Of a stretch of DNA of 64,000 nt, positions 2,863-63,899 are shown in pieces (within the stretch, counting starts at the first letter, position 1; each line of letters begins with the position of its first letter). The DNA is from Saccostrea cucullata (lineage: Eukaryota). The DNA lies in assembly GCF_032062105.1 (NCBI RefSeq), contig NW_026929454.1:62001-126000 (forward strand), written 5' to 3'. A program made the translations under genes and the position numbers. Below the pieces are notes generated by a model. That model ran no database searches. It was not told the DNA's origin and saw only the letters and a list, made by a program, of their open reading frames with translations.

Positions 2863-2963
2863 CACAATTTACAACAACTCTTAAACTAATATAACTGCCC
2901 TAAGTGAAGAAATATTAATATAGAAAGCACAAAGAAATTCACTTTTACATGGATACCCACTTC

Positions 2964-3740: not shown

Positions 3741-3829
3741 GCCTAGATAGCCGAGCGGTCTAACGCGCTGTTCCTGCACTGCTAGGAGACAGATTCCGTA
3801 GGTCGAGAGTTCAACCCCGGGCTGGGGCG
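3741..3829 (+). ncRNA. tRNA-Leu-derived Pol III head (second direct copy)
   Basis: Identical to 3393-3481, offset by 348 bp. Confidence 0.7.
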
Positions 3830-3867
3830 GAAGTGGGTATCCATGTAAAAGTGAATTTCTTTGTGCT

Positions 3868-3870
<3 letters not shown>

Positions 3871-3933
<63 letters not shown>
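3871..3933. repeat. (TA)n microsatellite, right flank of the tRNA-unit insertion
   Basis: Pure TA run. Confidence 0.95.
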
Positions 3934-14500: not shown

Positions 14501-15612
14501 CAATTGTGCCAGGCTCCGATACTGGCAATGCCAGATTTTCATCATGAGTTCATTCTGGATACAGACGCAAGCAACCAAACCATTGGAGCCGTCTTATCGC
14601 AGAATATAGATGGTATTGAAAGACTGATTGCGTATGCAAGTCGCACCCTGTCAAAAGCTGAGCGCCAGTATTGCGTCACCAGAAAAGAACTGCTAGCGGT
14701 GGTAAACTTCACGAAATATTTCAAACATTATCTGTACGGCAAGCAATTCACCGTGAGAACAGACCACAGTTCCTTGCGCTGGTTGCTCAATTTTAAGAAT
14801 CCTGAGGGTCAGTTGCGCGATGGCTCGAGGCGCTAGGGAATTTTAAAATGAAAATAGAACACCGTCCTGGAAAACAACATAGCAATGCTGATGCGCTAAG
14901 TCGACTGTCTTGCAAGAAGTGCTGCATGCCTGATGATCCGATTGAATTGCAAGTACGCAACTTAGCTCCGGACACAAATATGAAGTCTCTACAAAAGAAA
15001 GATGCTGCTTTAGAACTGGTCAAAAATTGGGTTTTAGAGGGCAAGAAGCATGAGTATTCTACTATAAGTAGTGAGGGACGCGTGGTCAAATCGCTGTGGT
15101 TACAGTTTGAAGCTTTGATTGTTGAAGATGATATATTGTAAAGGAGATGGACTGATGGTAAAGGCACGAAGTTGCAAGCTGTTGTGCCGTTTGGTGAAAG
15201 GCGAACAGTCCTTAGTCAACATCATGACAACAGAGTGTCGGGTCATTTAGTAATGACAAAGACAGTTGCAAAGATCCGTCAACGGTACTACTGGCCAGGC
15301 CTACAGTCAGATGTTCGTGCGTACATTGCAGGCTGTGAAAAATGTAGTAAACGGAAAGGTTTTCAAAAGACAAAGCGATCGCCCATGCAGACTGTTCAGG
15401 TTGGGGCACCAATGGAACGTATAGCAACGGATATACTTGGGGAATTACCAGTAACAAATAAGGGGAATAGGTATATTCTTGTAGTATCGGACTACTATTC
15501 AAAATGGACGGAGAGCTTTCCGATGAGAAATATGGAAGCCGAGACTGTGGCAAAAGTCATCGTTGAACAAGTTATCACTCGGTTCGATGTGCCTTACGTC
15601 ATCCATTCTGAT
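11518..15612 (+). pseudogene. Gypsy gag-pol, broken into more than 9 ORF pieces
   Basis: ORFs 11518-11778, 11840-12604 (gag), 12601-13086 (CCHC and protease), 13111-13665, 13726-14462 (RT), 14372-14836 (RNase H), 14848-15612 (integrase). Confidence 0.9.
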
Positions 15613-17530
15613 CTGATGGAAAACACTGATGATTTGTTTTGTCATAAGATTTACTCTCGATGTATTTTCCCTTTTGAGAAAGAATTGTAAGTTTTGCTTT
15701 TTCATACTAACATTTTAATTTACATGATCATTCTATTTTGTCAATGAAAGTTAGAATTCTCGAAAAAAATTATTACCACACAAACAATCCATCACTGAGT
15801 ATACCTTTCCGAAGAGAACGAGAAGAATTTTGAATCATGAAACTAGGGAAAGCCTTCCCTATGGATGTAATGACAATGTCGACAGTGTTGGAAATCTTTC
15901 CTTTTTACAGTATAACAATATAAATGTGATCGGACATTTTAATCATACACAGAGACGTATGCGTAGTCATGGACATCGATCTTACAATTAATCTTTAAAT
16001 ACGATGTATCTTTGATTCAATTCTACCTTATGTAAATCGTCAGTTAGGTGTACATTATATGTGCATGTATCAAATTTTACTCTGTCCCTTTTAAACTTTT
16101 AAATATTCTTCATGAAAAAGTCAAGGAAAGATTATTGTCTGATTCCTCGACACCAGATAATAGGATCGTACATGTATCTGTGATTATGGATATAGCAAAC
16201 CATAGGCCTTTTATACCCCCACGTTTTACTGAAGAAAATGAAGCTAAAACAATCCTTTTTTTTCCTGAGACAGTCAAAATACATAATATTCTTAATCACA
16301 AAAGGGTCCAGTATTGTTTTCCAACATACCGTATAGGTAGAATTTTTAGAGAGTATCTCAGAATTTTAAGCAAAGTGTCAAGGACATGATGATCCCTCAA
16401 AATGAGACTACCACTCGCTCTAATTAATGCAAGATATCCTTTTCTCATACAATTTTCATAAGAATCCTTACAAACAATTGCAGGCCCCAGCAAATGTTCA
16501 GTCAAGCCTCTGTCTCCACGATAAATTTAAGTCCAGGCTTTTTGATATCATTGACAGCTGCTTTTTCAATAATAATGGAACTCGTAAAATCATTCTGATA
16601 ATACACACAAGTACTCTGAAGTTGACATCAAAAAGATGGTTGGGTTTCTGATTGACAATATTTTGCGGTTGGAGACCAGGTCTTCCAACAATCTATTGGA
16701 ATTCCCATGGGTACCAATAGCGCCCCTTTATTAGCAGACCTATTTTCATATTCATATGAAACAGAATTTATGCAAAATCTTATGTGTAAAAAATAGAAAA
16801 CACTTGCTGTGGCCTTCAACGCGACATGTAGATATATCGACGACGTATTGTCCATTAAAAAATGGTAATTTACATTCCAATACGATATATCCTGGTGAGC
16901 TTGGGATAAAAAATACCACAGAGTCTGATTTATTTGTTTCATACTTGGATATTTTACTTGAAAACGACGTTACAACCAAGCTCTATGATAAACGAGATAA
17001 TTTTAATTTTTCTATCGCCCCCTTCCTTTATTTATGCAGCGATATATCTTCACCACCTTTATACGGAGTATATATATCTCGGTTGATTCGGTACGGTACG
17101 CAAGAGCATGCTTTACATGTGAACAATTTCAAAAACAAGGTAACATATTGACAAACAAGTTGACGAAACATGAATATCAGCAGTCTTGTTTAAAGTCATC
17201 ATTTCGTAAGTTCTATGATCGATACAATGACCTTGTCAGAAAATGCAATTTATAATTGAGTCAAATGCTGACTGACGTTTTCCGAACTAATTGTTAGTCA
17301 ATTATTTTTACACTGAATCGGCGACGGATTTTTCCGTTATTTCCTGATCTTGAGATGGAGCACAAGGCGGGTGTGACTGGTCGGCAGGGGATGCTCACTT
17401 CTCCATGGCACCTGTTCCCACCTCTGATTTTTTGGTGGTCCGCGTTTGTTCTGCTCCTATTTTGTATTGGACTGGACTTCACAGTTCTGATATTGAATAC
17501 TGTTCTTGATCTCCAAATGTTTTATTTAAA
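15613..17530 (+). mobile_element. Penelope-like retroelement, Naiad/Chlamys type (GIY-YIG upstream of RT); degenerate, longest copy in the window
   Basis: ~15700-15900 decodes to HFNLHDHSILSMKVRILEK...RREREEF*IMKLGKAFP/YGCND, the C-terminal half of GIY-YIG. ~16600-17296 decodes to PLE RT (QQSIGIPMGTNSAPLLADL, RYIDD, KLYDKRD). Followed by the conserved 3' motif at ~17355-17455. Confidence 0.85.
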
Positions 17531-21118: not shown

Positions 21119-21172
21119 ATGGGATGCTAACTTCTCAATGGCACCTGAACCACTTTCTGGTGTTTCGGAGGT
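21119..21172 (+). mobile_element. Naiad-type PLE 3' motif fragment
   Basis: GGGATGCTAACTTCTCAATGGCACCTGA...TTTCGGAGGT matches the other copies. Confidence 0.6.
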
Positions 21173-23003: not shown

Positions 23004-23848
23004 TCATTGCAATTTATATCCAGTAAAAGAAGACCAGTTTGCATAAGCATATTTTCCATATGCACCATGTGTTCTTATCCAGACTTTGTCTTTTTTCTTC
23101 ATTTTTATTAAAGCTGTTGATGATGCACTTTCATAGTTAGAACTTCCTGATTTGCCATCCGCGTGATTGTAACCAATTAAATTTCCATTCAGAACGATCT
23201 CTGTATAAAATTGTGATGTTAAGTTTGTCAGAATTGTCCATTGAAGGAGTAAATACCATCCTCAGGCGCTGTAAATTTACCTGTGGAAGGGTCATAGGCG
23301 TTTCCAGAATTTAAGGTTACTTTTCCGAAGACCACCGCAGCATAGTTTTTAAGGTTCTGCTCGGGTGTCGATATTCGAGCGTGAAAAGCAATTATCCCTG
23401 TTTCGAACCAAGAAGAAATCAAAATTATACTCTTATACATGTATTAAGAAAAAAATTTTTTTTCACAACAATATATCGGGTTAGATTGATAAATAAACTA
23501 AAAAGGTAGATATTGTAAAATATATTACTCTGAATATATAATATGATTTTGGCTACCTTTTTCTTCTCTATTGCAATCTTTGTTTTTATACCCCATTCCT
23601 TTGCATACTGCATTGTACTTGGTGTATTTACTAATGAAATCTTGTGTGTTTTCTTTTGCAAATCCTTTGCTTAGTATAATTGCAATCACAAGAACTGCCT
23701 CCTTCTGTGCGAAAATCCTGTTTAAAATACAAAATAGAAAGAAAACGCATCTATATGAAGGATATAATTTTACTAAGTGATTTCTGAATTGATTTATTAT
23801 ACACATGCAATATCTGTAATGATCATATTATTTATAAAATACTTACAT
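23004..23848 (-). pseudogene. C1qDC paralog A, secreted globular C1q; exons ..23847, 23717-23557, 23397-23004; 1-nt frameshift at ~23241
   Basis: IAFHAR...FGKVTLNSGNAYDPSTGKFTAPEDGIYSF, frameshift, then WTILTN...DKVWIRTH...WSSFTGYKLQ*. GT-AG introns and a signal-peptide exon. Confidence 0.85.
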
Positions 23849-30545: not shown

Positions 30546-33500
30546 TTATTTTGAAACATAGTAGATATTTTTCGGATAGTTAAACATATGACTTTTTCTG
30601 TATGGGCATTCCCTGATGAAGAAACCACGAATACCTCCCATTCTGAAAACGAAAAAAATGTACTTCAGGTATTCAAACTTTAAAATTCTTAATAATCTTT
30701 ATATCAATAATCAAAACGTTTATCACTTGGGTTATAATTAACCAGAATAGATACTATACCAACCCGTTTGAAATTGGCTTTCTTCCTGTAACTAAATATC
30801 CTGGACCAAATGGTGATACAAAATTTTCTGTCGTTCGGAACCATATTTTACATTCATTGTCATTGTAGGAAGCTCCAAACACTATATAAATAGAGGAGAC
30901 GCATTTGGAATTGTGTTCAATTAATAGAAATACTTTCAAAAAATGATAAGTCAATAAAAATACAACCAGAATTTCTGAAATAGGATTCACTGAACGTGGT
31001 GTTCCATGCTAATATCATAACAAAAAGTGTAGTAAATTTAAAAATCAAACAGATATAATCCTGATCTTTATATTAAAAACTTAGGCTGAGAATGAAACTA
31101 ATCATTTTTAGCTTTGATACATATTTAGGATATTTTTCAAAACAAATGTAGTACGACATAGTAGTTTTTATGTCATTTTTTCAAGTACAGAATGACTAAA
31201 GTCGATGACAATTTTTGCGCAAACAACAGCATTGGAAGGATTTTTCACACACTGTTAATCTTACTTTTCGAATGGCTACATGTGTCAACAAGATATCTAA
31301 AAAAAATCTTTAACATATTCTAATAACATTTTTAAAAAAAAAAGAGTATTCGCAATGCAGTTTAGTTGATCGAGATGTATTAACGCAGGAAACAAAGTTT
31401 AAAAAGTAAGAATAGAAAGGGAATGAAATAATGCAGATCCAAGCTTGTTTAATTTGTAATTGACAGGGACATTTGCAAATACAATTAAAAGCTGCATAAA
31501 AAAACATTACTAAAAAAGAAAACAAGATACGCTGTAGACAAAACGGGAATGCTTTGATATTAAACCTCTTCGTAACAGATGCAATTTTCTACACCAATTA
31601 AAGGGAGCTTCTAGCAGCTACATGTACGAACCAGAACAGCAAATAACCCTTCTCTGTCCCGCGTCAGAGTTGATCCCATTGAAATAGTTTTTCTGTGGGC
31701 AAACAAACGCTTCAAATGCACCAGCGTCTTGAAGAAGAATAAAATAATATTGAAAATGAGAAATAAGTCGTATTATAAGTTTTAAACTGAGTACTGGGAA
31801 ATATGCATATTTCTATTTTCAGTATATGAAAAGTTGTGTCTAAGATGGAATCAGATTTATGTTTGTCTCTTCTATCTATTCGATTTTTTTTCTTCGTTTG
31901 AGATTTTATTTGGACTTACTGAAAATGGCACATTGTTTTACTTTTCCTGGTGGAGGGAGACATAATGAACCGAAAAAAGACGTTGGATCGCCGCCTCGAA
32001 ACACAAGTGGTCCTTTGTCCGTACAGTTTATATTTGAACGTTGAACAGAAATAGGTTCAGTATTTTCTACAATGAATTATGTCTCTGTAGAAAGAGTCAA
32101 CAGTCAAACAAAGCTGGAATAGCTAATTCAAGTTTAGCTTAGATCGGCGAGCTAGCACCGAAGCAATTTTTAAACAGAAAGGAAGGTTTGTGAAAGACTG
32201 GTTTATTTTGCAGTTTTCTTTAATGTTTAACGAGGCTGGAGTCTGAAAAATAGAGTTATTATGTAAATTATGTAAACCAAATAGCTTTGAATCCACACCA
32301 ATGGCCGATAAAGAATCAAGTAATATTTCACGTGCCCTGGTGTAAGAAATAGGCTTGTTGATATTACAAAGCCTGTGACAATTAGCTGATTTGAAATAAC
32401 GTACAGATCTAAAAATGAAATCGTCTGGTTTTCCTGATATTCCAGCTAACTGTAAATAATGTTTTGCCCAAAACACAGGACATGTAGCATTACCTGTACT
32501 TGCAATGAGAACATCATTACCTCGTCTATAAACGTCAGTTTTGCTGCTTTCAATATGTAAACACATGTAAAAATCATGAAAAGAAATATTTCTAACTCTT
32601 AAATTCGCAAGTTCATTAAATCTTAAAAACCCCGCAAATCCCATCAGAAACATAGCACACACTCTTACACTTAATAAGTCATTTTTTTGACTGACATCAT
32701 CGTATTTGTTTATGATCTGCTCCAAAATTTCGGGCGTAATAGGTTCCTTCTTCTGAATCGGCTTACTAAGGATTCTTTTTCCTCCTTCCATAACCATATG
32801 CAGAATTTTTGTATCACACGGATTAATGCACACATTGAAATCATGGAACCACTTAATACTGTAAAAATAAGCTGATAACACTGATTCTGATACCGACTGT
32901 TGCACGAGACTGCTAAGAAATACGGCTACCGTACTCACTGCCGCGGGTAAATGAGAAAGACCATGATCTGAACACCAGGTCCTGAACTTTTTAAAATATA
33001 TGTCGAACATTTTATTTAAACTATCACTCTGCCCTTTCCTGATTATGTGCTGAATATTTGATGCTGCTGAATAAAATCTGCTGTCCATTTGCATTTCCTG
33101 AATGTTTGTCAAAACACTGCGTACCTAGGGAAAAAAAAATGAAACCACCGTCATATCCAAATACATGCATATCAAAATAATAATTTCATCACCCAAAAAC
33201 TGTCGTGTTTTTTAAACAATTAGTCAAATCTTTTGCACATGATGCTTAATTTTTTGCACATGGTGCCTTACTAATAAATTAGTTCATACAAACTTTGCAC
33301 ATGGTGCATGAATTTTTATTGTACATTGAACTGCACATGGTGCTCAAATTTTATACTTTTCAGGATGTTCCAAAATTTACTTTCAAAACCAGTACATTAC
33401 TCTGAAATTTTTCTGATGCAAAAATACCGTTTTTATCTGAACCAGCTGTGAGAAAATTTGTAGGATTTTTATATTCAAAATACTTCAGCACAAAATCGTG

Positions 33501-36500
33501 AAATTTATTTTTCCTTTCATTCCCATCGGCCAATACAAAGCGGATTTCCATTTTGGAATGATTAACGTACCAAATGCTTTACATATTTGCATATGAGTAA
33601 TAACTTTGCATATCAAAACAGGTGGGGGCACAATCCAACAATTATCGTCAGCCCAATTTTGTGCAAATGCATCAACCCCTGAAGATCCGGGGAGTCCAAA
33701 ATCTAGAATAAAATTTTTTAACTTTTCTATTCTTACTATCTGCAAATAAATCACAGGTATACTCTCGCCATACTTCATTAAAAAATTTAAAAATTCTGTT
33801 TGAAACTCCCCAATCATCATAATCATAAATCTTGCTTAAGTCATCTGCATCTGTATTCATAGTTCTAGGAATCCATTCTAACTCTAATTTTATCGAATAC
33901 GCAACACACAAACCAAACATTTCCAAAGCAAGCTGATGCAGCTCGTAGTTCATACTACCCTTAGATGCAATAAGTACTGCATTTTTATTATCTGTATACA
34001 CTTTGACAAGTCTACCCGACAGATAATTTTGCAAACTCTCAATAATCACACAAATAGCTTTTATTTCTCGCCACGTAGAACTTTTTATTTTTTCTGAATC
34101 ACTCCACATGTAATGCACTACCTTTTCATTTTGTTCTAAAGAAAAACCTGCTCCTGCAAAAGAGCTCGCATCCGAAAACAAAACTTTTGCAGGTATTTTT
34201 CTGAACCGTGTAATTTTTTATCTCGGTAAAGTGGCCATATTCTTGTACCAGAAAAGCAATTCAATAATACAGTCACGTGACATATTCAATACACAATCCC
34301 AACCAGTTCTCTTACACAATGCCATGCTCAAGTGTCGTGTCATCAGCTGACAAATACTACCTAAAGTAGGTTTCAATGAAATGACCTTTCCCACAATAGA
34401 ACCGACATTTCGCGCAGTTACTCTACTTACATTATTCACTATCGAAGCAACAACAGAACGAATACTGTCAATTTTTTCATTCGGAACTTCTAAAATGCCA
34501 TCTTTCAGATTCCATACAAATCCTAACCAAATCATTTTGTCTACTGGAACAAACTGCGATTTTTCTATATTAACCTGAAACCCTGAGTGATCTAACGTTT
34601 TCTGTAGAAACGCGGCTATTTCTATACAAGAATTGTAATCAGAGCAAACCCAACCATCATCGAGATAAACTACGATAGGAATGCTATGAGATCTCCAACA
34701 TTTTACCAATACCCTCACAACTTTTGTGAAAATATGCCCTGCAGAAGAAAGCCCAAATGGCAAAACAGTGAATTCAAAATATTTCCTTTTTCCCTGAAAT
34801 TCCCAACTAAACCCTAAATACTTTTGAAATTCGGGATGTACATCTATATGGTGGTAACCCGATTTAAAATCAAATTTTATCATGAATTTTTCTTCTCTAG
34901 CATATAACATAGCTTCCTTAATTCCCTCGAATTTAATTTTTTGCTTCTCAATAAACTGATTAACATGTCTGAGATCTAAAACAAGACGTTTTTTACCAGA
35001 CGCGTTAACAGACACAGTCAAAGGATTAACTACAAAAGATGGTTTTTGAATCTCTCTAACACACCTAGTCTTAATTAGGTCAGAAATAGCTGAGCAAACA
35101 AATTCTGCATGATTTAATGAAGACCTGTTATTTTTTAAAATAATACTATATAGAAGTTCTTTGAAAGGTATAGCATACCCACATCTTATAATATTCAAAA
35201 TAAAACTATTAGCATTAAGCTCGTCATTCCACAAATTTATGCTTTTCTTGAGCTTGGATTTAACACTAACCATCTCAACATTTTTCTCATATTCATATTG
35301 CTCATTTAAATCAAACATATACTCAACTTCACTATTTTCACTGCTTAGAGGTTCCACTTGTGCTTGTAGTTGAGGTTGACAAGGTGGGGATGGGCTGGCC
35401 TTTGAGGTATGGGAAGTCTCTGACCATGTGTCCGACTTGCCGACAGTAGAAACATCCGCCACGATCTCTTTGGAACTGGAATACTGTATTTCCGACCCTT
35501 GAAGCCCCTGTGTTGAATTTTTCGGAGGAATTATACGACTGGCTAAAGCCACAAAAAAAGTCACTGGGCGCAAAACTTCCTCTGCGTCTTTCATACGGTT
35601 TTGCTCTGAAGGATCGTTTTCTTGCAGCACGCCCCACAGCGTAATGAAGCTTAGTGGCATCTTCGGTATTATCTGCCAAAGGGTCATCGAGATACTCGTG
35701 CACGGTATCCCATCCGTGACGGTCAGCGATTTTCAGAATTTTGTTTCTCTGTTGTAGGGCTGTCTTTTCTTCCTTAATAACTGCTGCAGCCTTTGTTAAA
35801 TCAACTTCCTGAATGAGACCTTCAATTTCAGACAACTTAGAAAGTCTATCTTGATTAAACGCGAATTGAATGTTATGCCCCTCATGCTTAAATTCAAATG
35901 CTTGTCCGGACTCAGGCACGTGTGCTGCACTTTTCAAGGCATTACTTTTTCCTAGTTGTTCTGTAAGTCCTGCAATTGTACTCACAATCACATTACTTTG
36001 TTTTTCTAAGGCTTTGTTGAGTGAAGTACTAAACAGCGAAACGGCGTCCTCGTTTGAGAGCCCAACTTCATTACACTCCATTGTATTACTATCCTCCATA
36101 TTTCTTACAATCTTTAAATCCTAGCGAGCAAGCTTAGAGTGCCGTGCTACCGCATGGCCTTACTATTTATACCCTAAATAACCACGTGACTTCAGAAGAA
36201 AACTTTTCGAACACATACCACACATAATTTTAATTGATATGTGGGAATTTGATGGTGGTGTTGAGTAATACTGCATATAAAATTTTACAGTTCGTGGCGG
36301 TATTGAATTCATGGGTCTCCCCATACCTCGAAATCAACGCAAATTCAACTTCCACGAAAATTAGTGATTTCAAGGTACACATTAAATAAACAGACTTCAG
36401 AATCAAACAACGAAGGCCAGTTTTATTCAATTACACAACGAAATCGTTATCGTACAGTCTGTCTACAGTATTTTTTACATAGACCGTGAAATTTGTTTTT

Positions 36501-39112: not shown

Positions 39113-40390
39113 ATACGTCGATACGATATATCCTGGTGAGCTTGAGATAAAGGATACCATAGATTCTGACACATCTATTTCATATTTGGATGTTTTACTT
39201 GAAAAAGACGTTAATGGTAATCTAACAACCAAGCTATATGATAAATGTGATGACTTTTACTTTTCTATCGTCAACTTCCCTTACTTATGCAGCAATATAC
39301 CTTCATTACCTGCATACGGTGTATTTATATCTCAGTTGATTCGATACGCAAGCGTATGCTCTACGTGCGAACAATTTCTAAAACGGGGTAAATTATTGAC
39401 AAGCAAGTTGATGAAACAAGAATATCAACAATTTCGTTTAAAGTCATCATTTTGTAAGTTCTATGGTCGATACAATGACCTTGTCAGCAAATACAATTCT
39501 TCATTGAGTCTATTTTTAACTCTGTGAACAGGTGTCCGTAAGCACTGGTCATTTTAAGAAACCTGTTTATACTACAAGCTAATTACCCCCTCATTATAGG
39601 CAATATCCTCCGATGGTTTGACAGGCACTGAGACAGTGCGTCCATATTTAAGTATTTTGCCAAGAAAGAGAGACCAGGTATTTTATTTAACTGTCTTCAA
39701 TAAACACGGGCGATAACTCGTACTCATTGCATTTACTAGAGAACATGGCGTGTAAATTTTAGGTGAGAGAAAACGTTGAGAAAATTAGTTGAATTCCTGT
39801 CTTTATTTTGGATTATATTTTAGGTTAAAAGGCATACACAACCTGAAAAAGGTTTGATAAATTAATTTAGAAGTATTTTCAGTGCATATCCTTTTGTAAT
39901 CTTCGAAATTGTTTGGGAGCGGTTCAGCAATTTTTTTGCAACGTTGCAAGTATATTGGTGGAATTCCAATTGTACTAACTAATGTAAATTAAACATAAAC
40001 TGATATGAAACTCTTAAGTGCTTTTTATTTGTAGCGCCAATGGCAATTCGCAAAATTTTGAAACGTAAAAATTAATCAACAGCTTTTTGACCTAAATTTG
40101 CAAAACTAAAGCGACGTAAAAATTGCCAGATTTACGGTATGCTGACTGACGTTTTTCATACTAATTATTAATCCATTATTTGTGCACTGAATTGGCAACG
40201 GATTTTCCCGTTATTTCCCGATCATGACAAGGAGCACACGGGTGTGACCGGTCGGCAGGGGAAGCTCATTCCTCCATGGCATCTGATCCCACCTCTGATG
40301 TTTCGGAGGTCCGTGTTTGCTCCGCTCCTATTTTGTATTGTTTTATGGACTTTTGATTTGGATACTATTCGTTATCTCCATACCTTTCAT
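39113..40390 (+). mobile_element. Naiad-type PLE copy, interrupted by a ~630-bp insertion (39511-40138)
   Basis: RT C-terminal ORF 39186-39527. The consensus TCATTGAGTC|AAATGCTGACTGACG is split between 39510 and 40139. 3' motif at 40231-40325. Confidence 0.85.
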
Positions 40391-40747: not shown

Positions 40748-41045
40748 TTCTATGATCGATACAATGACCTTGTCAGCAAAACATTTTATCATTGAGTCAT
40801 ATGCTGACTGACGTTTTCAAACTAATCATTAGTTTATTATTTATACACTGAATTGACGACGGATTTTTCCGTGATTTCCCGATCATGACAAGAAGCATAT
40901 ATATGTAGCGGGTGTGACCGGTCGGCAGGTTTTGCTCACTCCTTTATGGCACCTGATCCCACCTATGATGTTTTGGAGGTCTGTGTTTGCTCTGCTCTTA
41001 TTTTGCTTTGTTTTTTGGGATTTTGATCTTGAAAACTGTTCATTG
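40748..41045 (+). mobile_element. Naiad-type PLE 3' end
   Basis: ORF terminus plus 3' motif at ~40890-40995. Confidence 0.85.
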
Positions 41046-42398
41046 ATTGTTTCAATGAAAAATTATAAACAAATGATGGATTTTAATTCAAGTACATGAA
41101 CGAAAGGGACAGGTTCAGGATGACCAGTGCTTTGATTGTGAGGGACTTTGTGGTGTGTGTTCGGCAGGAGCGGGGAGGGGGTATGAAAAAAAAATTGCAA
41201 TACTTATAGTTAACATGAGATTTGTAGCATACGAGGGTTGACACAAATTTAATATTTCCTAAATTTTACGTGTACTTGTATAGGGTGTGCCTTTCCACCA
41301 CTAACCCCACAACGTCCACATACGCAACTTGATTTGGTTTGGAATAATATTGGATATCATTCCTCGGTTTATCATTGAACCCTTTAACGCTCTTCTTCTG
41401 TATATGGACGGGTTTATTTTCGAAAGAAACAGCGATCATGAGCTGCATATGCTGGAAAGTAAAGACTCTTATCGATTAGATATTTGATAAATTTTAGTCC
41501 GAAAAAGTCGGTCGCTTTGGTGTTACTGAATTTTGAGATTTTGAGAATTCACATCTGATTTACACAGGCTCCAGAATATTCTGCAGCATAGTGCCTCTGA
41601 ACTCTCTTTTTACCAACAGCTAATATTTTTGTAAGGTGTAAGGATAGATTAAAATGAGCATTTGCTCGACTATGTAATGTATCTCTGTTTGTAAGGATTT
41701 TTACAAAAACTAGATATCCAATACAGGATGATGGATCGAATGCACCTTTGTTGACTGGGATTTAAAATGTTAAAAAAATAATTTTGAAGAATTCATAATT
41801 AGATTGAAAATTTATTGTAAAATATAGATTTGGAGCTTTTATCTATTTTTAGAACTTTTTTTAAGATGGTCGTTTTAAGGTCTTAATTTTTCATTTAATG
41901 GAAATAACAAGTCAGGGAGAGTCCAGCGAGGCATTGTTTGTTTTTTATGTAAATAATCTTTGGCCACTTTTGAAAGGCTAAAAATTGTCTCACTTTAAAC
42001 GATTTTATTCATCATGTAAGGATGATTTTATTTTTATTTTTATTCCTGGATTTTCTTAAACTGATTATATTTAGGACAAAAATTTTCCCACCTACCTACC
42101 GATTTTTTTTACCCTGAATCAGGAGAGTCAAACAAACACTATTAAAAATTTTTGTTGATGGTTTCCAAAGAAAATTGCTTGCATTCTTTTTTGAAATTTG
42201 AAGAGTTCTAAACATGTTTAAGAATTTTTAGAGATATAATCAATTGTATTTTGCTACAAAGATATTAAGATGATCAATTTACATATTATCAAATATTATC
42301 TATATCTCTTTTTTCTTTTCATTCATGTCTTTTGAAAGTATTGAAATCATAAGATATTTTAAAATTTAAGATAATTTTATTTTTCCTCAATGTTTCCG

Positions 42399-43310
42399 TT
42401 ACAATCTAAATCCGGAAAACGATGACCAGCTTACGACAGCGTATTGCCCATCTCCACCATGTGTTCTAATCCAGACTTTATCATTTTTCTTCATTTTTAT
42501 TATAGCTGTCGAAGATCCGGAAGAGTAACTCGAACTGCCTGAGACGCCATCCGCATGATTGTAGCCAATTATATTACTGTTAAGAACAATATCTGTGTTA
42601 AACATCTTCCCAGCTAGTGTGTTAGAATGGTCCACGTGAATGAGTAGGCACCATCTTCAGGTGCTGTGAATTTACCTGTTATAGCATCACAGGCATTTCC
42701 ATGGTTTAGAGTTGCCTTTCCAAATACAACAACAGCATAGTTGGTAAGGTTAACCTTAAGTTTCGATAATTGTGACTGAAAAGCTATGATTCCTGTTTAA
42801 AATAAACGACAAATGCTTAACTGTAGATTCAACAGAAACAATGAAAAGTAGTATGTAAAAGATATTCCCTGAAAGGTTTTGACTTTGATAATGTAAAAAT
42901 TTTTTATACGAGTATTTCACATTTTGAACAGTAATTTAACATGATCAGAGAATCCATGTAACCTAGCTTGAAGGAAATCAAAAATTTTACGTAATTCTAT
43001 ATCTGACATTTCACACAGGAAGACCAACACATCTTTTGATGAAATTATACCTTTTTCTCCTGCTGTGCAATTAGTTGTTCTATAACCCATTCCTTGACAC
43101 ACTGTATTGTACTTTTTGTATTTCTCGAGAAAGTCTTGTGGGCGTTCCTCTGCATACACTACAAAAATTATGCACACAACAAGGAGTGTCGTTTTGAACA
43201 AAGTTGTACAATTCAAAGACATTAAAAGTAAAAATAACATTTTATTCAAAGCAATATGTCAAAAATTAAAATTATAAGATATCATAAATTTGCAGTGAAT
43301 ACTTGCATGT
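42399..43310 (-). pseudogene. C1qDC paralog B; gC1q exon 42792-42399, upstream exon ending 43051; +2 (CA) frameshift at ~42620
   Basis: IIAFQSQ...GKFTAPEDGAYSFTWTILT, frameshift, then LAGKMFNTDIV...DKVWIRTH...WSSFSGFRL*. Upstream exon reads LLVVCIIFVVYAEERPQDFLEKYKKYNTVCQGMGY. The 5' splice sites look non-canonical. Confidence 0.85.
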
Positions 43311-44685: not shown

Positions 44686-45020
44686 TCGTTTAAAGTAATC
44701 ATTTTGCAAGTTCTGTGGTCGATACTATGACCTTGTCAGCAAACACAATTTATCATTGAGTCAAATGCTGACTGACGTTTTTCATACTTGTTGTTAGTCC
44801 ATTATTTATACACTGAATTGACGTCGGATTTTCCCGTTATTTCCCGATCATGACAAGGAGCACACGGCGGGTGTGACCGGTCGTCAGGGGATGCTCACTC
44901 CTCCATGGCACCTGATCTCACCTCTGATGTTTTGAAGGTCCCTGTTTGCTCTGCTCCTGTTTTGTTTTGTTTTATGGACTTTTCATCTTGAATACTGTTC
45001 GTTATCTCCATATGTTTCAT
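44686..45020 (+). mobile_element. Naiad-type PLE 3' end
   Basis: ORF terminus plus well preserved 3' motif at 44857-44951. Confidence 0.85.
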
Positions 45021-51517: not shown

Positions 51518-51944
51518 GTTCTTTTTGAAAAGAAAATGAGCTCCACATGCGTTTTATAGATATACCTCTGACATTGACTTCAGAAGTTAAATAAATATGG
51601 TTATTGTACATTTTGATTTATTTAGACTAATTAAATTTCTATAATTTGAATTTTTATAAGGAGAATATGTAAAATAAATCTTTAAAAATGTCAATTCTTA
51701 CTCGTTTATCTTTTGACAGGAAATAATAAATATCTCACGTTAAATATTTTTTCTATGAACCCTTCCTTTCTGGTTTTTGTATTTTTTTTTTTTTGTTTTA
51801 AATTAGCATAAATCTAGTTTTTTTTAAGAGAGAGAGAGAGAGAGAGATGTTGCATTTCATCATTGTTCTTATTGTTTTGTGATGATTTTTATTATAAACA
51901 AATTTAAAGGCAACTTTCTTGACAACGTCGGCGCTTATGCAAGA

Positions 51945-52900
51945 AGGATATGGAGATAACGAACAGTATTCAATCTCAACGTCCATTAAACAATATACAA
52001 AATAAGAGCAGAGCAAACACGGACCTCCGAAACATCAAAGGTGGGATCAGGTGCCAAGGAGGAGTGAGCATCCCCTGCCGACCGGTCACACCCGCCGTGT
52101 GCTCGTTGTCATGATCAGGAAATAACGGAAAAAATCCGTAGTCAATTCAATGTATAAATAATGGACTAACAATTGGTATGAAAAACGTCAGTCAGCATTT
52201 GACTCAATGATAAATTGTATTTGCTGACAAGGTCATTGTATCGACCACTGAATTTACGAAATGATGACTTTAAACGAGACTGTTGATATTCTTGTTTCAT
52301 CAACTTGCTTGTCAATAATTTACCTCGTTTAAGAAATGGTTCATACGTAGAGCATGCTCTTGCGTATCGAATCAACTGATATATATATACTCCGTATGCA
52401 GGTGATGAAGGTATATTGCTGCATAAGTAAGAGAATTTGACGATAGAAAAGTTAAAGTCATCACGTTTATCATATAGCTTGGTTGTTAGATTACCATTAG
52501 TGTCTTTTTCAAGTAAAATATCCAAGTATGAAGCAGAAGTGTCGGACTCTGTGGTATCTTTTATCTCAAGCTCACCAGGATATATCGTATCGACGTAGGA
52601 ATGGAAATTATCATTATTAATTGACAATACGTTGTCGATATATCTAAATGTCGAGTTGAAGGCCACAGCAAGTGTTTTCTTCTTTTCACGCATAAGATTT
52701 TGCATAAATTCTGCTTCATATGAATATGAAAATAAGTCTGCTAATAACGGAGCGCAATTTGTACCCATGGGAATTCCAATAGATTGTTGGAATACCTGGT
52801 CTCCAAAAACCACATAGATATTGGAAATAAGAAACTCAAGCATCTTCTTGATGTCAACTTCAGAGTACTTATGTGTGCAATCAGAATCTGTTTTAGCAAA
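51945..52900 (-). mobile_element. Naiad-type PLE, 5'-truncated, best preserved copy (RT ORF 52166-52843)
   Basis: QQSIGIPMGTNCAPLLADLF, FRYIDN, KLYDKRDDF, QLIRYARAC. The ORF ends without a C-terminal GIY-YIG. 3' motif at 52011-52104. Confidence 0.92.
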
Positions 52901-53761
52901 CTATCACGCAAGCCACTCTATTGATAACATCATGAAACTAAAAAATTATAGACAATTATTTCTTTAAGTCAATTTTATTAGTCTCTTTACATACAACATT
53001 TCAAAATCTTCCATGAACTGCCTTTGTTATATATTTGTTGACATCTCATAAACGACAATTCTCATTCAAAATAGTTTGTCGTTGCCCTGTTCTACTCCCA
53101 CTTCAATTATAGCCTAACAAGATCATATGGACGGCACAAAACAATATTGCGAAACATAAACGTAAAAAGTTTCCAAGGTCCAGGCGTTTGTTAAATTTAA
53201 AAAAAAATCATGTAAATAGGGCAGTAAGATGAAAATATGTTGAAATTCAAGTCGGATTGTTAGGAAAAATGAGCTTAATTTTGTCTTTTACTCGTGATAG
53301 TTTGTATGTATATTCTATCGTTAAAATCGGGTAAAACTACATAGTCCAGCATGTTTCCTCAAACTGTAAACAATTAGTGAGAGGTACATGTATCATCACC
53401 TATCAAACTAATTTTCTAACTAAAATCAAATAAGGAAGAAAAAACATTCCAAAAGGAAAACATGGCCTGGGAAGTTCAAGATCGGAGGGGAGGGGTGTAG
53501 AACGGTTGCCGTTTCTTCCTAAATGTATTTTCAATTGGCCTATGATTATCATTATAAGCACAATAATTATATCACAAAAGAATTTCCTTGTCCTTGTGTT
53601 GAAGTATGTCGGCGATTGTAAAATTCAGTAAAATTCAGTGTTTGTGTCGCAAAAGTCTACCATGCATGGATTCAGAATCTTTTCTCCAAATCTAACCAGT
53701 TTTTCTACCTCTTCAACTGGGGTCTATCTGTGTTTTCTAGGGCCTGTTACAAATAACTTTG

Positions 53762-54136
53762 TTACAATTTGAATCCTGTAAATAATGACCAATCGCATAA
53801 GCATACTCTCAAAATGCACCCTGTGTTCTTATCCACACTTTATCAATTTTCTTCATTTTCATTACAGCTGATGAAGACCCGGAGTCCAAATTAGATCTGC
53901 CATACGATGACACAAAAGCATTATATATCTGTAAAAATTATTTATTTATTGTGTGATAATTAAGAGTAAAATGTATAACCAATAACTTTACCCCTGTGAA
54001 CAATTTCTAAATAGTTTTCCACTCATTGTGAGAATCATCCATCGGAGATAGAAGAGGCCATTATCAGGTGCTGTGAATTTACCGGTGGTAGCCTTATAAG
54101 CATTTCCAGAGATTTTTAATACTTGTCCAAAAATAT
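53762..54136 (-). pseudogene. Decayed C1qDC gC1q exon
   Basis: IFGQVLKISGNAYKATTGKFTAPDNGLFYLRW...SGSSSAVMKMKKIDKVWIRT...FTGFKL*, with frameshifts and a ~60-bp AT-rich insertion. Confidence 0.85.
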
Positions 54137-55300: not shown

Positions 55301-56709
55301 AAAGAATATATGGGAGCATTCAATAGTGGTCCACTCTATGCAAATGAGTCGAATGCTCCCTCATTTGCATGGCAAAATTCAACTAATGGTCAATTGATGG
55401 TCAGTTGACCGTCAACTAGTAGTCAACTGAATACTCCGATTGAATTCTAATAGTATTGTACATATGGGATTGTTTGATTTTTTAAATTGAGGATTACGTA
55501 TTTTTAGGTAATTAGTGAAAAATCCTTATTCCAGTTGGTACATCCGTGTTATTTAAGTGATTTATTTAAACTAGGGCAGACAAAATGTATATTACACAAA
55601 ATATTACATACTAAATGTCTTAACATTAAGTATACATTGCTTTTGATGATCATTATTGGTAACAATTAATTTTTCAAAATATTTTACACTAAGAAGGAAA
55701 TCCACTTAACTCTACATGGATCTATAATAAAGCAAACAAGCTAGATGTAAAACCTAGTTTAAACCTTATACGTACTTTAAACAATTTATAAGTATAAACC
55801 TACTGCGCTGATATCACACAAGGAAGAACCCCCAAATTGTTAGAGTTTGTACGAGTGGAAAACAACAATCCCCCACAGGCAAATAGTGGTGTCTAAATAT
55901 GAATGAAAACTCTCGAAGGGAAGTTAAAAAACACCAACAAATTCATTCAAATTTTAGCCAGTTACAAAAATCCACTAGCAAACCAATCAAATATTTAGAG
56001 AGTATGTTATGTTCATTATCAAATACTTACAGTTTAATTGAGCAAATTTAATGTCTATTGCCTGAGCTGTCTCCAATAATCCTGAAGGTACTATGACTTG
56101 CTTTTGTTTTCATATGCAAATTCTGCTGATCGTACATTTGCTAATTTTTTTAAGACTCCGTTCAAAGGTATATAATTACTAAGAAATACAAATGTCTTGT
56201 ATTTCACCAAGATAATTCAATATGCAGATAGTTCTGATAGTTTTTTGGTATCAATCTTCATTTGTAATGTTGTTTGATTATCTAAGCATAGAACCCTATT
56301 ACACGGTGTACATACATATAAAATATTTGTAGCTCAATTAACGATCCTCTCTGCTGACTTTATAACACAGTGAGGGAGAAGGATTGTTTTAATTTTTATA
56401 TATTTTAATTGATCTTTTTTGGGGGTGTAAACAAACGGTGGATTAGACTGAATGAAATGTAATTATAGACTTCACTATACAGGATCGTCATCATGTTGCT
56501 AAATGTGCATTAATTGAAACTGAATGTCTTGATATATCGAGTGTTAATTCCTTTAATCTCTTGAGGTTTTAAACCACTAGATAATGAAATTAGTTTCTAT
56601 TGTCATAAAATCGTTCTGTCCGTCGGTATCTTTGTCCAATTTGTAAATACAAATGATAAATTGAATTGATTTTGAAAGTTTTGAAGGTTTATTTCAGCTA
56701 ACAATATCG

Positions 56710-58140
56710 TTACAATTTGAATCCTGAAAATGAAGACCAGTTTGCATGAGCATACTGTCCATATGCACAATGTGTTTTTATCCAGACTTTATCGTTCTTC
56801 TTCATTTTTATTACAGCTGATGAAGACCCGGATGCCAAGTGATGACTGTTTGTCTTGCCATCCGAATGATTATAGCCCAAAGTTTTGCCGTTGTGAACAA
56901 TTTCAGTGGGAAATAATTTATTTGTGAGAATCGTCCAATGGAATGTGTAAAGCCCATCCTCAGGTGCTGTGAATTTGCCTGTGGTAGCGTTATAAGCATT
57001 TCCAGAGTTTTGTGTTACATACCCAAAAATAACAACAGTGTAGTTACCAAGGTTTTCCTGTGCTTTTGATACACGTGCATGAAAAGCGATCTTTTCTATG
57101 AAAAGAAATGACAAATATAATTATTTTACTGCATCACAAAATACAGAAAAAATCCTACTTTTTGCATTTTAGATATGGCTATAAAATGGCTTTAAAATGA
57201 ATTTTTACATAGTCAACTTTCTTAACTTGTTAAGCAATATACAATATGTACCTTTATCACCTGCTTTAAAGTTTATGTCTCCTGGTTGATATTGATAGGC
57301 ATGGGCCTGTTCTACGTAGGAACAGATTCTAAAACGAATCAAGCTATTGACAAAGGGTCGACAAAATTTTCTCTCAAACTCTGCACTTATCGCTATTGAG
57401 CAGTGAAGGATCTTTCTCGTGTTAGCACCAACTGCGACACGTGCCTCGGTTTATATGGTCGCATCCGAAGGACCGGTCTCCATGTCCCACAGTGGGATTC
57501 GAAACCTCGACTTAAAGATAAACTCTTTACTTAGCGACTCAAGAGCAGACGCTCTAACCACTGCGCTACGCGGGTAACATTAATAAGAGTAACAAATATG
57601 AGTAAAAAAAAAGCCTTATTTGCCTTACTGAAAAAGAAGAATAACAAGGACAATCATAACATACTATCAGTGACAGTTCTTGCTGATCAAAAAAAGGTTG
57701 AAGCAAGTGTGCTTTTTATAAGTGACTTCGGGTTATTGATCTAAATTGCTTTAAATATTTAAAAAAAAAACTTTCAAAAAACAAATCTTATCACTTATTG
57801 ACCTTCATGATTTGTTTACGGATCAAAATGATTCAGGGCTTTGGTGGTTGTGTACGACGTCGGCAAAGCACGTGACTCACAAAATATTTAACTCAAATTT
57901 CCGTAGGAAGACGATAATTTGAAACTGTTAAATACATTATTACATCTAAATTTCTGAATTATCCAAACTCAAGGCAAGTGGTGGGTTATCTATTCATTAT
58001 GTACATATACATGCATGTCAGTTTCTTAAACAAAAGTATTTTTTATATAAATACCTTTCTCTATTCCTGCACAGTTCCCATTTTGCAATTCATACAGGAT
58101 GCATAGAGCAAGCAAGCAGAATTGCTTCAAATATTCTCAT
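56710..58140 (-). pseudogene. C1qDC paralog C: intact gC1q exon 57095-56710; signal-peptide exon 58140-58055 carries a 4-nt (GCTT) duplication frameshift
   Basis: The gC1q ORF is open (IAFHAR...WSSFSGFKL*). The upstream exon reads MRIFEAILLA, frameshift, LCILYELQNGNCAGIEK|GT. Confidence 0.7.
57370..57574 (-). mobile_element. tRNA-derived SINE, same family as 45740-46044
   Basis: Shared CCGAAGGACCGGTCTCCA.GTCCCACAGT.GGATTCGAA...AGAGCAGACGCTCTAACCACTGCGC. Confidence 0.8.
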
Positions 58141-60627
58141 CCTATTTCAAGACGCAAAAAATGAATTTGAAATATGTTTCCAATGAGTGAGGCTATTTGC
58201 AATACCAGATAGCCTCAACTGTTTTCACTACTGCTACAAGAATATCGAAAAATGAAAAAAAAAATAGAAGTGTACCCTTTCTCATACTGTAATATACAAT
58301 GTTAACATAAAAAGTAGTGAACTATTATTACAACAGATGTATTTTAGAAATGTAAAGAGATTTATACTGTCATCCTTAAAGTATATAAACAACTTAGAAT
58401 GTGTATAAAAATGTATGTGTAACAAATATTAGAATCTTACCTTAATAAATTATCGAAAAAATTTAATAAATCTGCCTTGACAATTTGATTTCAAAACTAA
58501 GAGAGCGCAATATTTTATAACATTTAAATATAAAATATAAGAGAATCGTGATTAAAGAAAGGTAACAGGTTGTCAATAAATAAACACGCAACACCCTACA
58601 GCGAAAAAACTGCTATAAACATGTCTCATCAATTTGATGAAGAAAATAAAATGAATTGGTTCCTGAAAAATATAGACAGTTATGTCATACGAATTATGTA
58701 AAGCTCAAGATCAATTACCCAGTCCTGTTTTTCAGTCCGATCTAATGACATTGAAAGGTATTGTTAACAATGTAGATATTCATCTGCTTTTTTTCAAATT
58801 TTCAACCCACTATTTCTTAAGATTGTTAACCTTGTGTTATGAAACCGTATTGCTTAAAATGTGGAGATGAAAATAATACTTGTTTTAATTTCAGTCGTTC
58901 AGGTTAATACACCTAAAATTCAAAAAATGGAGAAAAAAAATTTCAATAAAATATAAAAAAAAAAAAATTATAATACAGTTTTTAAATGACAAATATCTAT
59001 ATTGATCAGCGATATAAATCTCCTCTTTCCGTCAACAGCAGGGCCCCTATATTTGCCGCTCATTTGGTTTTTGTTCAATATAAAAAAGTTTTTATAAGTG
59101 AAGACGGAAGTATTATGTCTTACTTCAGTAAAACTCCCAGTATCTACTTAAAAGCAGAGATCAGCTTTACTTTTGGTTGTAACATAATGCATGCAATATA
59201 TAGTCTTGCAAAAACACCTGAACGATTCAACAAGAGGATCGTTAAAAGAACGAAAAATAAAATAAATATTTAAATTTAAAAAAATACCGGGTATTTGACA
59301 CAGAAAAATTTTGATGGAGAGAATCTATATAGACTCGCAGCTAGGTTAAGGATTCCCAAAGGTAGATCAGTCTATGCAGAAAATCGGGAACTCGATTATG
59401 ACGTCATGTTAAAATTGTACAAATGAATATTGGCGAATAAATAATAATTTTCTTTTTCATACATTCTTACTTACTGTTATTTCTCATAATTATTGTAAAC
59501 ATAAACTGTGTAACTTATCTTGTCATTAAAACACTATTTGAATGTAAAATCAAAGCCTTGATCTCGCTACATGCTGACAGATATGACGTCATAGACTATT
59601 TTGACATGCAGTTTCTCTGTACTTGAGAAGCAAATCATTGCCACTTGAAAATATGAAAATTAAAACTAAATAAGCGTGATATGACTAAAATTGAGTCATA
59701 TTTTGCATTACTCTATATTTCACTGTATTATTTAATTGATAACAATTAGGTATCTTATAAAGTCGCAGTCATGCACTTTTATGCATAAAAGTACTACAAT
59801 AACAGGCACAACCCCTCTAAAATCTCAAAAGTTCAACGATATCCGCTTACCTATAAATTATATTTTATACACATGTCGCTACTGTCCCTACTATTTTGAA
59901 AAGTGCTGGGGCAAGTCTCGCTGTTGCCTATTCTATCTGGGTGCACATAGGACTGCGTTCGTGAACAAGCATTTTAATTGCAGCATGACATATATTAAAA
60001 TAACAAACTGTGGTGAAGCTCCAAAGTCCATTAAACAATACAAAGAGCAAGAGCCACTTTGAACCATATTTGGCCCTGAGAATTTCCGGAAAAATCTAAA
60101 CTGCTCAGTTTAGGTGGCAAATGCAGTATTTATCACTTGAAATGTTTGTGACCATCTTATTGTTCATGACGTAATTTTCTCTCTAGTCAATTATTACGTC
60201 ATAAAATGCGTCATTTTCCTCATATCCTGTAAATTTCTTTGAAAATGACTTAAAGTTGAAGTATTTTTTCAATATTTAATATAGAGCACAACCTCTGATC
60301 CAAAATATGCAAATACAAAATGAAAGATCTGTTTCTGAAGATCCAAAAACATGTTTTATTTTTTTTTATCCTTGGCAGTGGTCATATTTTAATTCTTTGC
60401 TGAAGATCTCAAATACGCATGTTTTCTGCAAATTTAAAGAACATTGCTATTTCTCAAAGCCCGTTTTCCAATATCTGGATTCTCAAAAAGAAATTTTATT
60501 ACAGGAAATTAAAGCACCAAGTGTCTACTTTATTTTGATGTAAGAAATGAGAAAGAGGGTAAAGTTAATCAGTTAATATAAGTACAGGACCATTTTATGC
60601 ATAAAGTGAACCTAGCTCTTTAGTATC

Positions 60628-60718
60628 AGAGCAATCATGGACCTCTGAAACATCACAGGTGGGATCAGGTTGCCATATAGGATTTAGTATCCCCTACCAC
60701 CGTGTGTTCTTTGTCATT
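60628..60718 (-). mobile_element. Naiad-type PLE 3' motif fragment
   Basis: GGACCTCTGAAACATCACAGGTGGGATCAGGT.GCCAT...ATCCCCT...CCGTGTGTTC. Confidence 0.7.
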
Positions 60719-62068: not shown

Positions 62069-63899
62069 TTAAAGTTTAAAACCAGAGAATGACGACCAAT
62101 TATCATAAGCAAATTTTCCATCTCTACCAAATGTCCTTATCCAGACATTATCATTCCTCTTCATTTTTATGATAGCAGATGAAGATGCACTATCATAATT
62201 AGAGCTTCCTGTTTTGCCTTCGGCATGACCGAAACCAATTACTTTTCCGTTATGAACAATCTCTGTTTTAAAACACGAACCTACATTGGTTAATATTGTC
62301 CATTGAAATGCGTAGAGGCCATCATCAGGTGCTGTGAATTTACCTGTTGTAGGGTTATAGGCGTTTCCAGAGTTCAGAGTCACTGTTCCAAATACTACAA
62401 TGACATTCACGCCAAGGTTCTCTTGTCTTTTGGTTAAACGTGCGTGAAAAGCAATTTCTAAAAAAAAAATGGCATTATATTTAACTATAGGTACAGAACA
62501 TAATTATTTAATATTTTCACACACTGTTCGAATGATGTGGACCTTTTAAATCAAGTAATGGACAATCAAACTTGATCAAAGTAAAATTATTACATTGATC
62601 AAATTTGATTACCATAGAGTTTTTTAACAAAAAGATTACATTTTTCAAACTTAATTAATGTAAAGTTCTGCATAACTGTACATTGATGAAGTTTGATTGC
62701 CCATTTACTTTAAAGTTTTACGTAACAAAAATTAACATACAATCAGATAATCATATTATTACAGTTTACAAAGAGAGTTTTACAAATTTTATACGATAAA
62801 TTAAAGTCAAGGTTTTTCGATCTCATTGATATCTGCTTTTTCAATAAAAATTCGTAAACTTGCTTCCCTTGTCATTGGTCATTTGCTAAATTATTAACTA
62901 AAGTTAAAAAGCATTCAGATTGTTCACAAAAGTACTCTTAATTCGACATAAAAAAGATGCTTAAGTTTCTGATTGACAATATCTATGTGGTTTTGGTGGC
63001 CAAGTCTTCCAACAATCTATTGGAATATCCCTGGGTACCAATATTGCGCCCCGTTATTATTAGCAGACCTATTTTTGCATTCATGTACAGCAAAATTTGT
63101 GCAAAATCTTGTGCGTTAAAGGATAAAACACTTGCCGTGGCCTTCATCTCGACATTTAGATATATTCACGGCGTATTGTCAATTAACAAGTTTAATTTCC
63201 ATTCTTCTATCGATACAATATATTTTGGTGAGCCTGAGGTAAAGCATACCAATGAGTCTCACACATCTGTTTTATATTTGGATATTTTACTTGAAAAAGA
63301 CGTTAATGGTAATCTAACAACCAAGCTATATGATAAACGTGAAGACTTTAATTTTTCTATCGTCAACTTCCCTTACTTGTACAGCAATATACCTTCTTAT
63401 GGAGTTTATGTAGCTCAGTTGATTCGATACAATCGATTCTATGGTCGATACAATGACCTTGTCAGCAAATACAATTTATCATTAGTCAAATGCTGACTGA
63501 CGTTTTTCATACTAATTGTTAGCTAATTATTTATACACTGATTTAAAGACGTTATTTCCCGATCACGACAAGGGGCACACAACGTGTGTGACCAGTCGGC
63601 AGGGAATTTTTACTCCTCCATGACACCTGATCCCACCTCTGATGATTTGGAGGTTCGTGTTTGTTCTGCTCCTCTTTCGTATTGTTTCATGGACCTTTGA
63701 TGTTAAACAAGGTTCGTCATTTCCATGTGTTCTATAGTAACTAAATACCTTTTTCCTTTCCTGTACAGTTCTTTTTTTCATATCCAATTCCTTGACAGAC
63801 TGTGTTGTATCTGTTGTACTTTCTGACGAAGTCTTGTGGGGTTTCTTTTGCATACACTTCAAGCAATATGCTCACAACAAGTAGTATCGCCTTCATCAT
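62069..63899 (-). CDS. C1qDC paralog D, intact secreted globular-head C1q protein (~179 aa); exons 63899-63749, 62457-62069
   Basis: MMKAILLVVSILLEVYA-KETPQDFVRKYNRYNTVCQGIGYEKKNCTGKEK|EIAFHARLTKRQENLGVNVIVVFGTVTLNSGNAY...WSSFSGFKL*. Phase-1 GT-AG intron; no collagen repeats. Confidence 0.92.
62790..63730 (+). mobile_element. Naiad-type PLE, antisense in the intron of C1qDC D
   Basis: Degenerate RT ORF 62957-63496 plus 3' motif at ~63570-63668; ends about 20 nt from the splice donor. Confidence 0.88.

Follow-up and report, generated by a model that had tools for sequence, protein, structure and literature searches.

The question raised by this locus is what a compact motif does in the 3' untranslated region (UTR) of a retrotransposon, close behind the reverse transcriptase (RT), and whether its RNA acts as a ribozyme, as an element recognized by the RT, or as a linker between two RNA molecules. 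The motif covers 94 nt of the window (the whole 64,000-nt stretch of DNA that was analyzed) and has a GC content of 62%, compared with 32.5% for the window.

The motif and its host element

An earlier note on this DNA assigned the motif to the 3' UTR of a Naiad-type Penelope-like element (PLE). This assignment is upheld by the position of the motif after the RT, 61 nt beyond the stop codon in the main copy, and by the 3' region, which by eye is nearly identical to that of the Naiad_Sglo consensus in the supplement to PMC8557442, with two differences in the 94-nt motif. The ORF of the main copy halts 3' of the RT thumb, without a C-terminal endonuclease, as in Naiads; judged by this C-terminal RT and by the Naiad_Sglo match, the host element is a Naiad PLE. 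All copies of the Naiad in the window are 5'-truncated, and their 3' ends coincide near 51943-51948, just downstream of the motif. The eight full or partial motif copies that had been named were all recovered, six of them near full length, and a covariance model scores seven of the eight, the exception being the copy at 21121. Because these copies are the 3' ends of one retrotransposon family, their recurrence within the window reflects copy number only. The element and its motif copies are located as follows:

52166..52900, minus strand: C-terminal RT part of the 5'-truncated Naiad ORF (244-aa fragment; ORF search and comparison)
52011..52104, minus strand: whole motif, best copy (94 nt; covariance model, 87 bits)
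51943..52010, minus strand: 3' tail of the element (common end near 51943-51948; loose ends at 51941 and 51943)
17350..17459, plus strand: decayed copy, near full length (BLAST and covariance model)
21121..21172, plus strand: partial, 5'-truncated copy starting near P2 (BLAST only)
40224..40330, plus strand: decayed copy, near full length (BLAST and covariance model)
40891..41000, plus strand: decayed copy, near full length (BLAST and covariance model)
44850..44959, plus strand: near-full-length copy with both palindromes intact (covariance model)
60621..60717, minus strand: copy with an internal deletion (in the covariance model only at E 0.014)
63565..63674, plus strand: decayed copy, near full length (BLAST and covariance model)

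A small hairpin lies between the stop codon and the motif (window 52126-52140, minus strand), and its arms recur with differing loops in oyster consensus sequences.

Conserved helices and two palindromes

The structure was assigned by the analyst on an alignment of 22 intact-looking copies, hand-picked from 56 matches. In this alignment, 94.4% of 676 cells are paired and 24 of 31 pairs show two-sided change; none of 500 shuffles scored as high, and slid controls were 36-45% paired. RNAalifold, run without a supplied structure, recovers P0, P2, P4, and the outer three pairs of a first palindrome, Pal1. Conservation was further assessed in 15 family representatives picked by the analyst from the RT tree. 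Read 5' to 3' along the sense strand, the main copy is divided as follows:

52095..52104, minus strand: P0 5' strand, outer stem (covariation)
52089..52094, minus strand: P1 5' strand CGGGUG, nearly invariant; partner CACCUG or YACYC (alignment)
52079..52088, minus strand: Pal1, 10-nt palindrome, predicted to form an intermolecular duplex (alignment)
52075..52078, minus strand: linker ending in conserved CAG (C 15/15, A 15/15, G 14/15 families)
52070..52074, minus strand: P2 5' strand (covariation)
52062..52069, minus strand: conserved linker GCUYACYC (a variable base, then A 15/15 and C 15/15 families)
between 52066 and 52065, minus strand: candidate N^A cut site (variable base preceding the invariant A)
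52054..52059, minus strand: Pal2, palindrome of 6-8 nt (one substitution at 52057 in the main copy; 96% paired, 15 families)
52048..52053, minus strand: P1 3' strand CACCUG (CACC 15/15 families)
52043..52047, minus strand: P2 3' strand (covariation)
52023..52042, minus strand: P4 hairpin, contiguous with P2 3' and P0 3' (covariation)
52011..52022, minus strand: P0 3' strand (covariation)

The outer stem (P0) and the CCUYUGA/UCGGAGG hairpin (P4), both drawn by eye in the earlier note, are corroborated by two-sided change at all six modelled pairs of P0 (93.9% of cells paired) and at all five pairs of P4 (85.5% paired). Along the 3' side of the junction, the P2 strand, the P4 hairpin, and the P0 strand are directly contiguous, without any linker bases. 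The proposed CGGGUG stem crossed by GGGAU/AUCCC fared unevenly: P2, the crossing helix, shows two-sided change at 5/5 pairs, whereas P1 (CGGGUG/CACCUG) is 98% paired with no two-sided change, and a rival partner of GGGUG, YACYC, fits similarly at 97%. In 21 of 22 aligned copies, the P1 3' strand runs directly into that of P2, while the remaining copy carries 3 inserted nt. GGUG, CA, the C and AC of GCUYAC, and CACC are each present in 15/15 families. Covariation, whose lack across families had been named as grounds for giving up the fold, is found at every pair of P0, P2, and P4, which establishes the P0/P2/P4 junction as an RNA structure conserved in Naiad 3' UTRs. The crossing of P1 over P2 is compatible with the alignments but not proven. 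The window sequence permits P0, P1, P2, and P4 alike. The motif alone folds no better than shuffles (z -0.4 to -1.7, five folds), and the case for structure therefore rests on comparison.

The most telling feature of the motif, absent from the earlier note, is its two palindromes. Pal1 begins right after CGGGUG, and Pal2 finishes right before CACCUG, so that the two flank P1 at one and the same end. The palindrome sequences vary between families. In the 22 copies, 100% of Pal1 cells are paired, including the central, adjacent pair (AU in 12, GC in 4, UA in 4, and CG in 2 copies). Across the 15 families, this central pair is Watson-Crick without exception (0 of 100,000 permutations), the next-to-central pair is also significant (permutation p 8e-4), the two inner pairs are Watson-Crick in 30/30 cells, and the centre changes seven times on each side along the RT protein tree. 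By chance, 6.5% of 10-mers from these loci would have both inner pairs and 0.44% would be full palindromes. The covariance model leaves the two inner pairs of Pal1 unpaired, and in 88 model matches outside the training set, mostly decayed, pairing at these positions reaches 87%, with 129 Watson-Crick cells out of 157. On the sense strand, G-U exceeds A-C by 16 to 3 (p 0.004). Among the published Naiad consensus sequences that bear the motif, in the available 3' portions of the PMC8557442 supplement, Pal1 is by eye self-complementary in 12/12, three of them with G-U pairs, and Pal2 is even in 11/12, the Pinctada type being odd-length with a central mismatch. Pal2 varies less than Pal1 (central pair p 0.01, next pair p 0.07, 15 families), and about 88% of RNA reads at 52057 carry the base that makes the Pal2 of the main copy perfect.

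As adjacent bases cannot pair within one strand, the complementarity of the Pal1 centre points to pairing between two RNA molecules, and we infer with considerable confidence that the palindromes serve this purpose. For Pal1, the energy of the hairpin is 0 to -1.2 kcal/mol, compared with -8.8 to -18.1 kcal/mol for the duplex. Binding between whole motifs, computed with RNAcofold, does not clearly exceed that of shuffles (z +1.0 to -2.6; 2/15 below -2); the program is unable to form the two crossing duplexes together. A candidate CAG/CUG pairing was rejected, as it shows mismatches without compensation in the 15 families.

Distribution and the sister motifs of the Naiad slot

A metagenome scan with an RT alignment yielded 121 confirmed loci, of which the best 80 were kept; 65 of these 80 extend through the RT end and for 130 nt or more past it, and are evaluable. 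A covariance-model match starts within 330 nt after the RT end in 56 of the 65, usually at a distance of 40-90 nt from where the RT match ends, and a single assembly and a single family contribute many of the 56. Among the nine negative loci, five carry other 3' motifs and group as one clade on the RT tree (SH-aLRT 99). In roughly the last 300 nt of each of the 54 published Naiad consensus sequences (PMC8557442 supplement), the motif is seen by eye in 12: two from Clytia, three from oysters, one each from Tegillarca and Pinctada, four from hemichordate families, and one from the toadfish Chatrabus, the host listed in the metadata for the last entry. Its hosts thus comprise a hydrozoan, bivalves, hemichordates (acorn worms), and one fish. 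The prokaryote genomes G001, G002, G004, G080, and G100 hold further Naiad motif copies (L004-L007, L100-L126), 16 of them in G100, and the copies in these assemblies are most likely animal host DNA. In a viral collection, a protein scan found no match, and 15 pattern matches had neither an RT match nor a covariance-model match and serve as a negative control; the palindrome is present in none of the 12 that came from one of two pattern searches.

The same slot holds a different motif in several sister Naiads. A twister-like motif is located 3' of the RT in three loci (L021:3230-3300; L024:3395-3480; L040) and in the published consensus sequences Mgal, Bpla, Mphi, Scon, and Mmer, with Mytilus galloprovincialis, Bathymodiolus, Modiolus, Sinonovacula, and Mercenaria among the hosts listed in the supplement. 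It combines GAGG and N^AA with a GCCYG-UWCCAAG stem-loop, most examples also having two palindrome-like stretches, and looks like a circularly permuted twister in which two palindromes replace P1; the twister call is weak by score and made mostly by eye, the sole Rfam match of the L021 motif at E ≤ 10 being to twister-P1 positions 14-51 (14 bits, E 2.3). The RTs that accompany this motif are 57-59% identical to the RT of the window, and no paper on twisters in PLEs was found among literature titles. The consensus of Naiad-1_Movir (box jellyfish), in its published 3' portion, has a near-exact twister P4/L4 and a GAGGG strand with two short palindromes by eye, and twister-loop-like repeats that are not tied to the RT match of the locus occur at L026:1633 (minus strand), L057:3355 and 3439, L062:2682 (minus strand), and L081:1748.

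Several nematode Naiads hold both halves of a hammerhead core by eye in the same supplementary sequences. Core halves lie near the 3' end in the consensus sequences Obim, Ovul, Amil, Aacu, Anas, Hcon, Hpol, and Nbra, and several such sequences are flagged HHR_core or half core in the published metadata. In the octopus and coral sequences, the GAAA block comes before CUGAUGA, an order like that of the permuted type-SGC hammerheads described in available parts of PMC10085705. A third 3' motif is found in the clade without the main motif (L022:1609-1840, L043:686-760, and the consensus Mcor), with tandem repeats in L022 and Mcor. Ribozyme-type motifs thus appear to replace one another in the Naiad slot.

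Relation to known RNAs and possible function

Comparison with the HDV-like, hammerhead, and SECIS models of Rfam, proposed in the earlier note, came back empty: no ribozyme or SECIS family matches the motif at E ≤ 10, no ribozyme matches 11 loci at E ≤ 5 or five loci at E ≤ 10, and no ribozyme or SECIS match occurs in the 64-kb window at gathering scores. A scan of the 15 families for core words of the ribozyme classes also found no conserved core of a known ribozyme. No hammerhead core is present, as had been observed by eye, with CUGANGA in 1/15 and GAAA in 4/15 families on the sense strand. For twister (RF03160), which has no Rfam match in the motif, the GAGG strand occurs in 3/15 and the CYAAG (CCAAG) loop in 2/15 families; the twister-like motif of sister Naiads shares with the main motif its slot and a palindrome placed right after a GGU-containing hexamer. 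Twister-sister, pistol, hatchet, and hairpin give no Rfam match at E ≤ 5-10, in models that permuted forms would escape, and core words of twister-sister and pistol occur in 0 and 1 of the 15 families, respectively. The SECIS word AUGA is found in 2/15 families.

Among the closest known systems are RNAs that dimerize. The minimal type-I hammerheads of PLEs reside in the pseudo-LTR and need dimers formed through a palindrome, according to the available text of PMC4209133 and PMC6765202. The motif shares with them the element class, the pseudo-LTR/3' position, and a palindromic helix between copies, and differs from them in having no CUGANGA/GAAA core, two palindromes instead of one, putative crossing helices, and a length of about 90 nt. 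PAL1 and PAL2 of Ty1, in the available account of PMC6844567, are likewise two palindromic segments beside a pseudoknot that dimerize a retroelement RNA; Ty1, however, is an LTR element with Gag and carries them at the 5' end, whereas the motif lies in the 3' UTR of a Gag-less PLE, and each of its palindromes is self-complementary and free in sequence. The novelty of the motif would lie in its fold; its likely role has a precedent in PLE hammerheads. In gammaretroviruses, PAL1 and PAL2 provide a similar two-palindrome linkage of RNA dimers.

The best reading of the motif, which we hold to be somewhat probable, is a dimer-dependent self-cleaving ribozyme with a fold of an undescribed class. A ribozyme is favoured over an RT-recognition element because of position, as PLE hammerheads and the twister- and hammerhead-like motifs occupy the same slot, and self-cleavage by the motif may be expected from this position with moderate confidence. 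Two motif copies would form a symmetric dimer through Pal1-Pal1' and Pal2-Pal2' duplexes, the partner being most simply the second pseudo-LTR of one tandem transcript. The palindromic duplexes would stabilize a tertiary core of invariant bases (P1, CAG, and GCUYAC) clustered around P1, the role of palindromic helix III in PLE hammerheads, and the dimer would then cleave itself, possibly at the step between the variable base and A in GCUN^AC; this cut site is a guess, made from the variable base before the invariant A. The trimming of tandem transcripts would thereby depend on the presence of two copies. In three poly(A) RNA-seq runs, which are fragmented, unstranded, and consist mostly of read-through of decayed copies, no pile-up of molecule ends is seen in 51900-52500, and the 5' truncation points of 60 clean copies are broadly spread, with no hot spot in a search not tied to the model. 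The negative read data weigh little, since in an anole PLE, the one studied in vitro, hammerhead cleavage, which needed protein and was dispensable for insertion, left no RNA-seq ends either (PMC11167929, available text). A candidate truncation hot spot in P1 (four clean copies, model positions 16-22) was rejected, as 0 of 12 copies from new loci ended there.

Non-catalytic linkage of two RNAs, with the invariant core bound by the Naiad protein, is the main rival explanation, less likely but plausible, and shares much of the evidence. Binding of the core would set the start of reverse transcription about 60-70 nt downstream, and a protein dimer that carries two RNAs would prime from each side of the break in the DNA, thereby producing the tandem and inverted insertions that characterize PLEs. 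It accounts equally for the covariation and the palindromes, and it is favoured by the 3' ends of the window copies, which coincide just downstream of the motif, by the lack of a cleavage signature in RNA reads or truncation points, and by the Ty1 RNA, whose palindromes lie in the 5' UTR beside a Gag-bound pseudoknot (PMC6844567). Likewise, for one PLE the protein model is a dimer and the RNA used is uncleaved (PMC11167929), and Naiads often carry an inverted 5' copy (PMC8557442), in the parts of these papers available. However, no inverted pair was found beside the main window copy, and the use of a wholly different twister-like motif by closely related RTs that are 57-59% identical to that of the window is hard to explain for a shape read by a protein and easy for exchangeable ribozymes. 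This role and self-cleavage are not mutually exclusive.

The remaining explanations are much less probable. A pseudoknot formed by a single molecule, with the palindromes folded as short hairpins around loops of 2-4 nt, is improbable: Pal1 always has a pyrimidine at position 4 and a purine at position 7 (15/15), as in compact Y(NN)R loops, and RNAalifold renders it as a 3-bp hairpin, but the hairpin energy is near zero and a monomer gives no reason for central complementarity kept through seven paired changes. The rearranged HDV-like ribozyme suggested in the earlier note is more doubtful still. The motif, like the HDV-like ribozymes of R2 and L1Tc (PMC6765202, available text), resides in a retroelement, and its P1, as modelled, would cross P2 in HDV order and has a G-U (or G-C) pair close to its beginning. 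In contrast to these ribozymes, which lie at the 5' end, it is 3' of the ORF, lacks a conserved P3/L3, P1.1, and J4/2, and has its P4 following P2. The nested GCU/GGC stem proposed as P3 did not survive the comparison across the 15 families: it is 86% paired, shows no two-sided change, and has four C-A and two other mismatches in 44 cells. The UCCUC loop, which had suggested HDV, turned out to be family-specific and part of a variable palindrome, L3-like words (UCCUCG-type) occurring in 4/15 families. The J1/4, P4, and catalytic-C strand had rightly been called noncanonical, as the P1 3' strand runs straight into the P2 3' strand and a J4/2-like word is present in 5/15 families; no HDV-clan model of Rfam matches at E ≤ 5-10. 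Least probable of all, the palindromes might act in DNA, as sites for an endonuclease or a transcription factor, or might stem from fold-back copying by the RT. The pseudo-LTR of other PLEs does hold promoter and endonuclease-related signals (PMC8557442 and PMC11167929, in part), but the palindrome sequence varies freely, unlike a DNA-binding site, G-U pairs inside Pal1 in consensus sequences are unexpected from templated copying, and the G-U excess falls on the sense strand.

No description of the motif was found among literature titles and the starts of abstracts, although subscription papers, Repbase, Dfam, and bioRxiv supplements may contain one; the words and motifs tried are absent from the available main text and supplement of PMC10085705, and the available portions of PMC11662667 hold no Penelope, mollusc, or palindrome passage. 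Rfam has no family that matches the deeply conserved RNA fold of the Naiad 3' slot. Only about a dozen self-cleaving ribozyme classes (12) are known, according to the part of PMC10761166 available, and a candidate for a new class could be tested by transcribing about 100 nt. A wider proposal, to which we would give slightly less than even credence, is that the motif represents a new ribozyme class that acts as an obligate symmetric dimer, joined by two separate palindromic duplexes, from cnidarians to chordates, and that Naiads swap it for palindrome-bearing twister or hammerhead forms. If this is true, PLE replication would as a rule involve the sensing of two copies by means of RNA palindromes. 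Even if the motif is not catalytic, its two palindromes, each conserved independently, open RNA dimerization to experiment, both as a step in PLE transposition and as the origin of tandem and inverted PLE insertions.

The remainder of the window contains several unrelated features. Five diverged copies of an exon, which we take by eye to encode a C1q-type globular domain, form a tandem gene cluster on the minus strand (23004-23403, 42397-42814, 53761-53889, 56707-57123, and 62069-62483). RT and weak tyrosine-recombinase matches beside a gag-like ORF mark a decayed DIRS-type retrotransposon at 32123-36120 (minus strand), and ORF pieces resembling Gag, protease, RNase H, and integrase by eye mark a decayed Gypsy-type LTR retrotransposon at 11732-15690 (plus strand). 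A near-perfect inverted repeat of 750 nt lies at 2849-3881, and positions 1-1954 and 8090-10035 form a 2-kb direct duplication.
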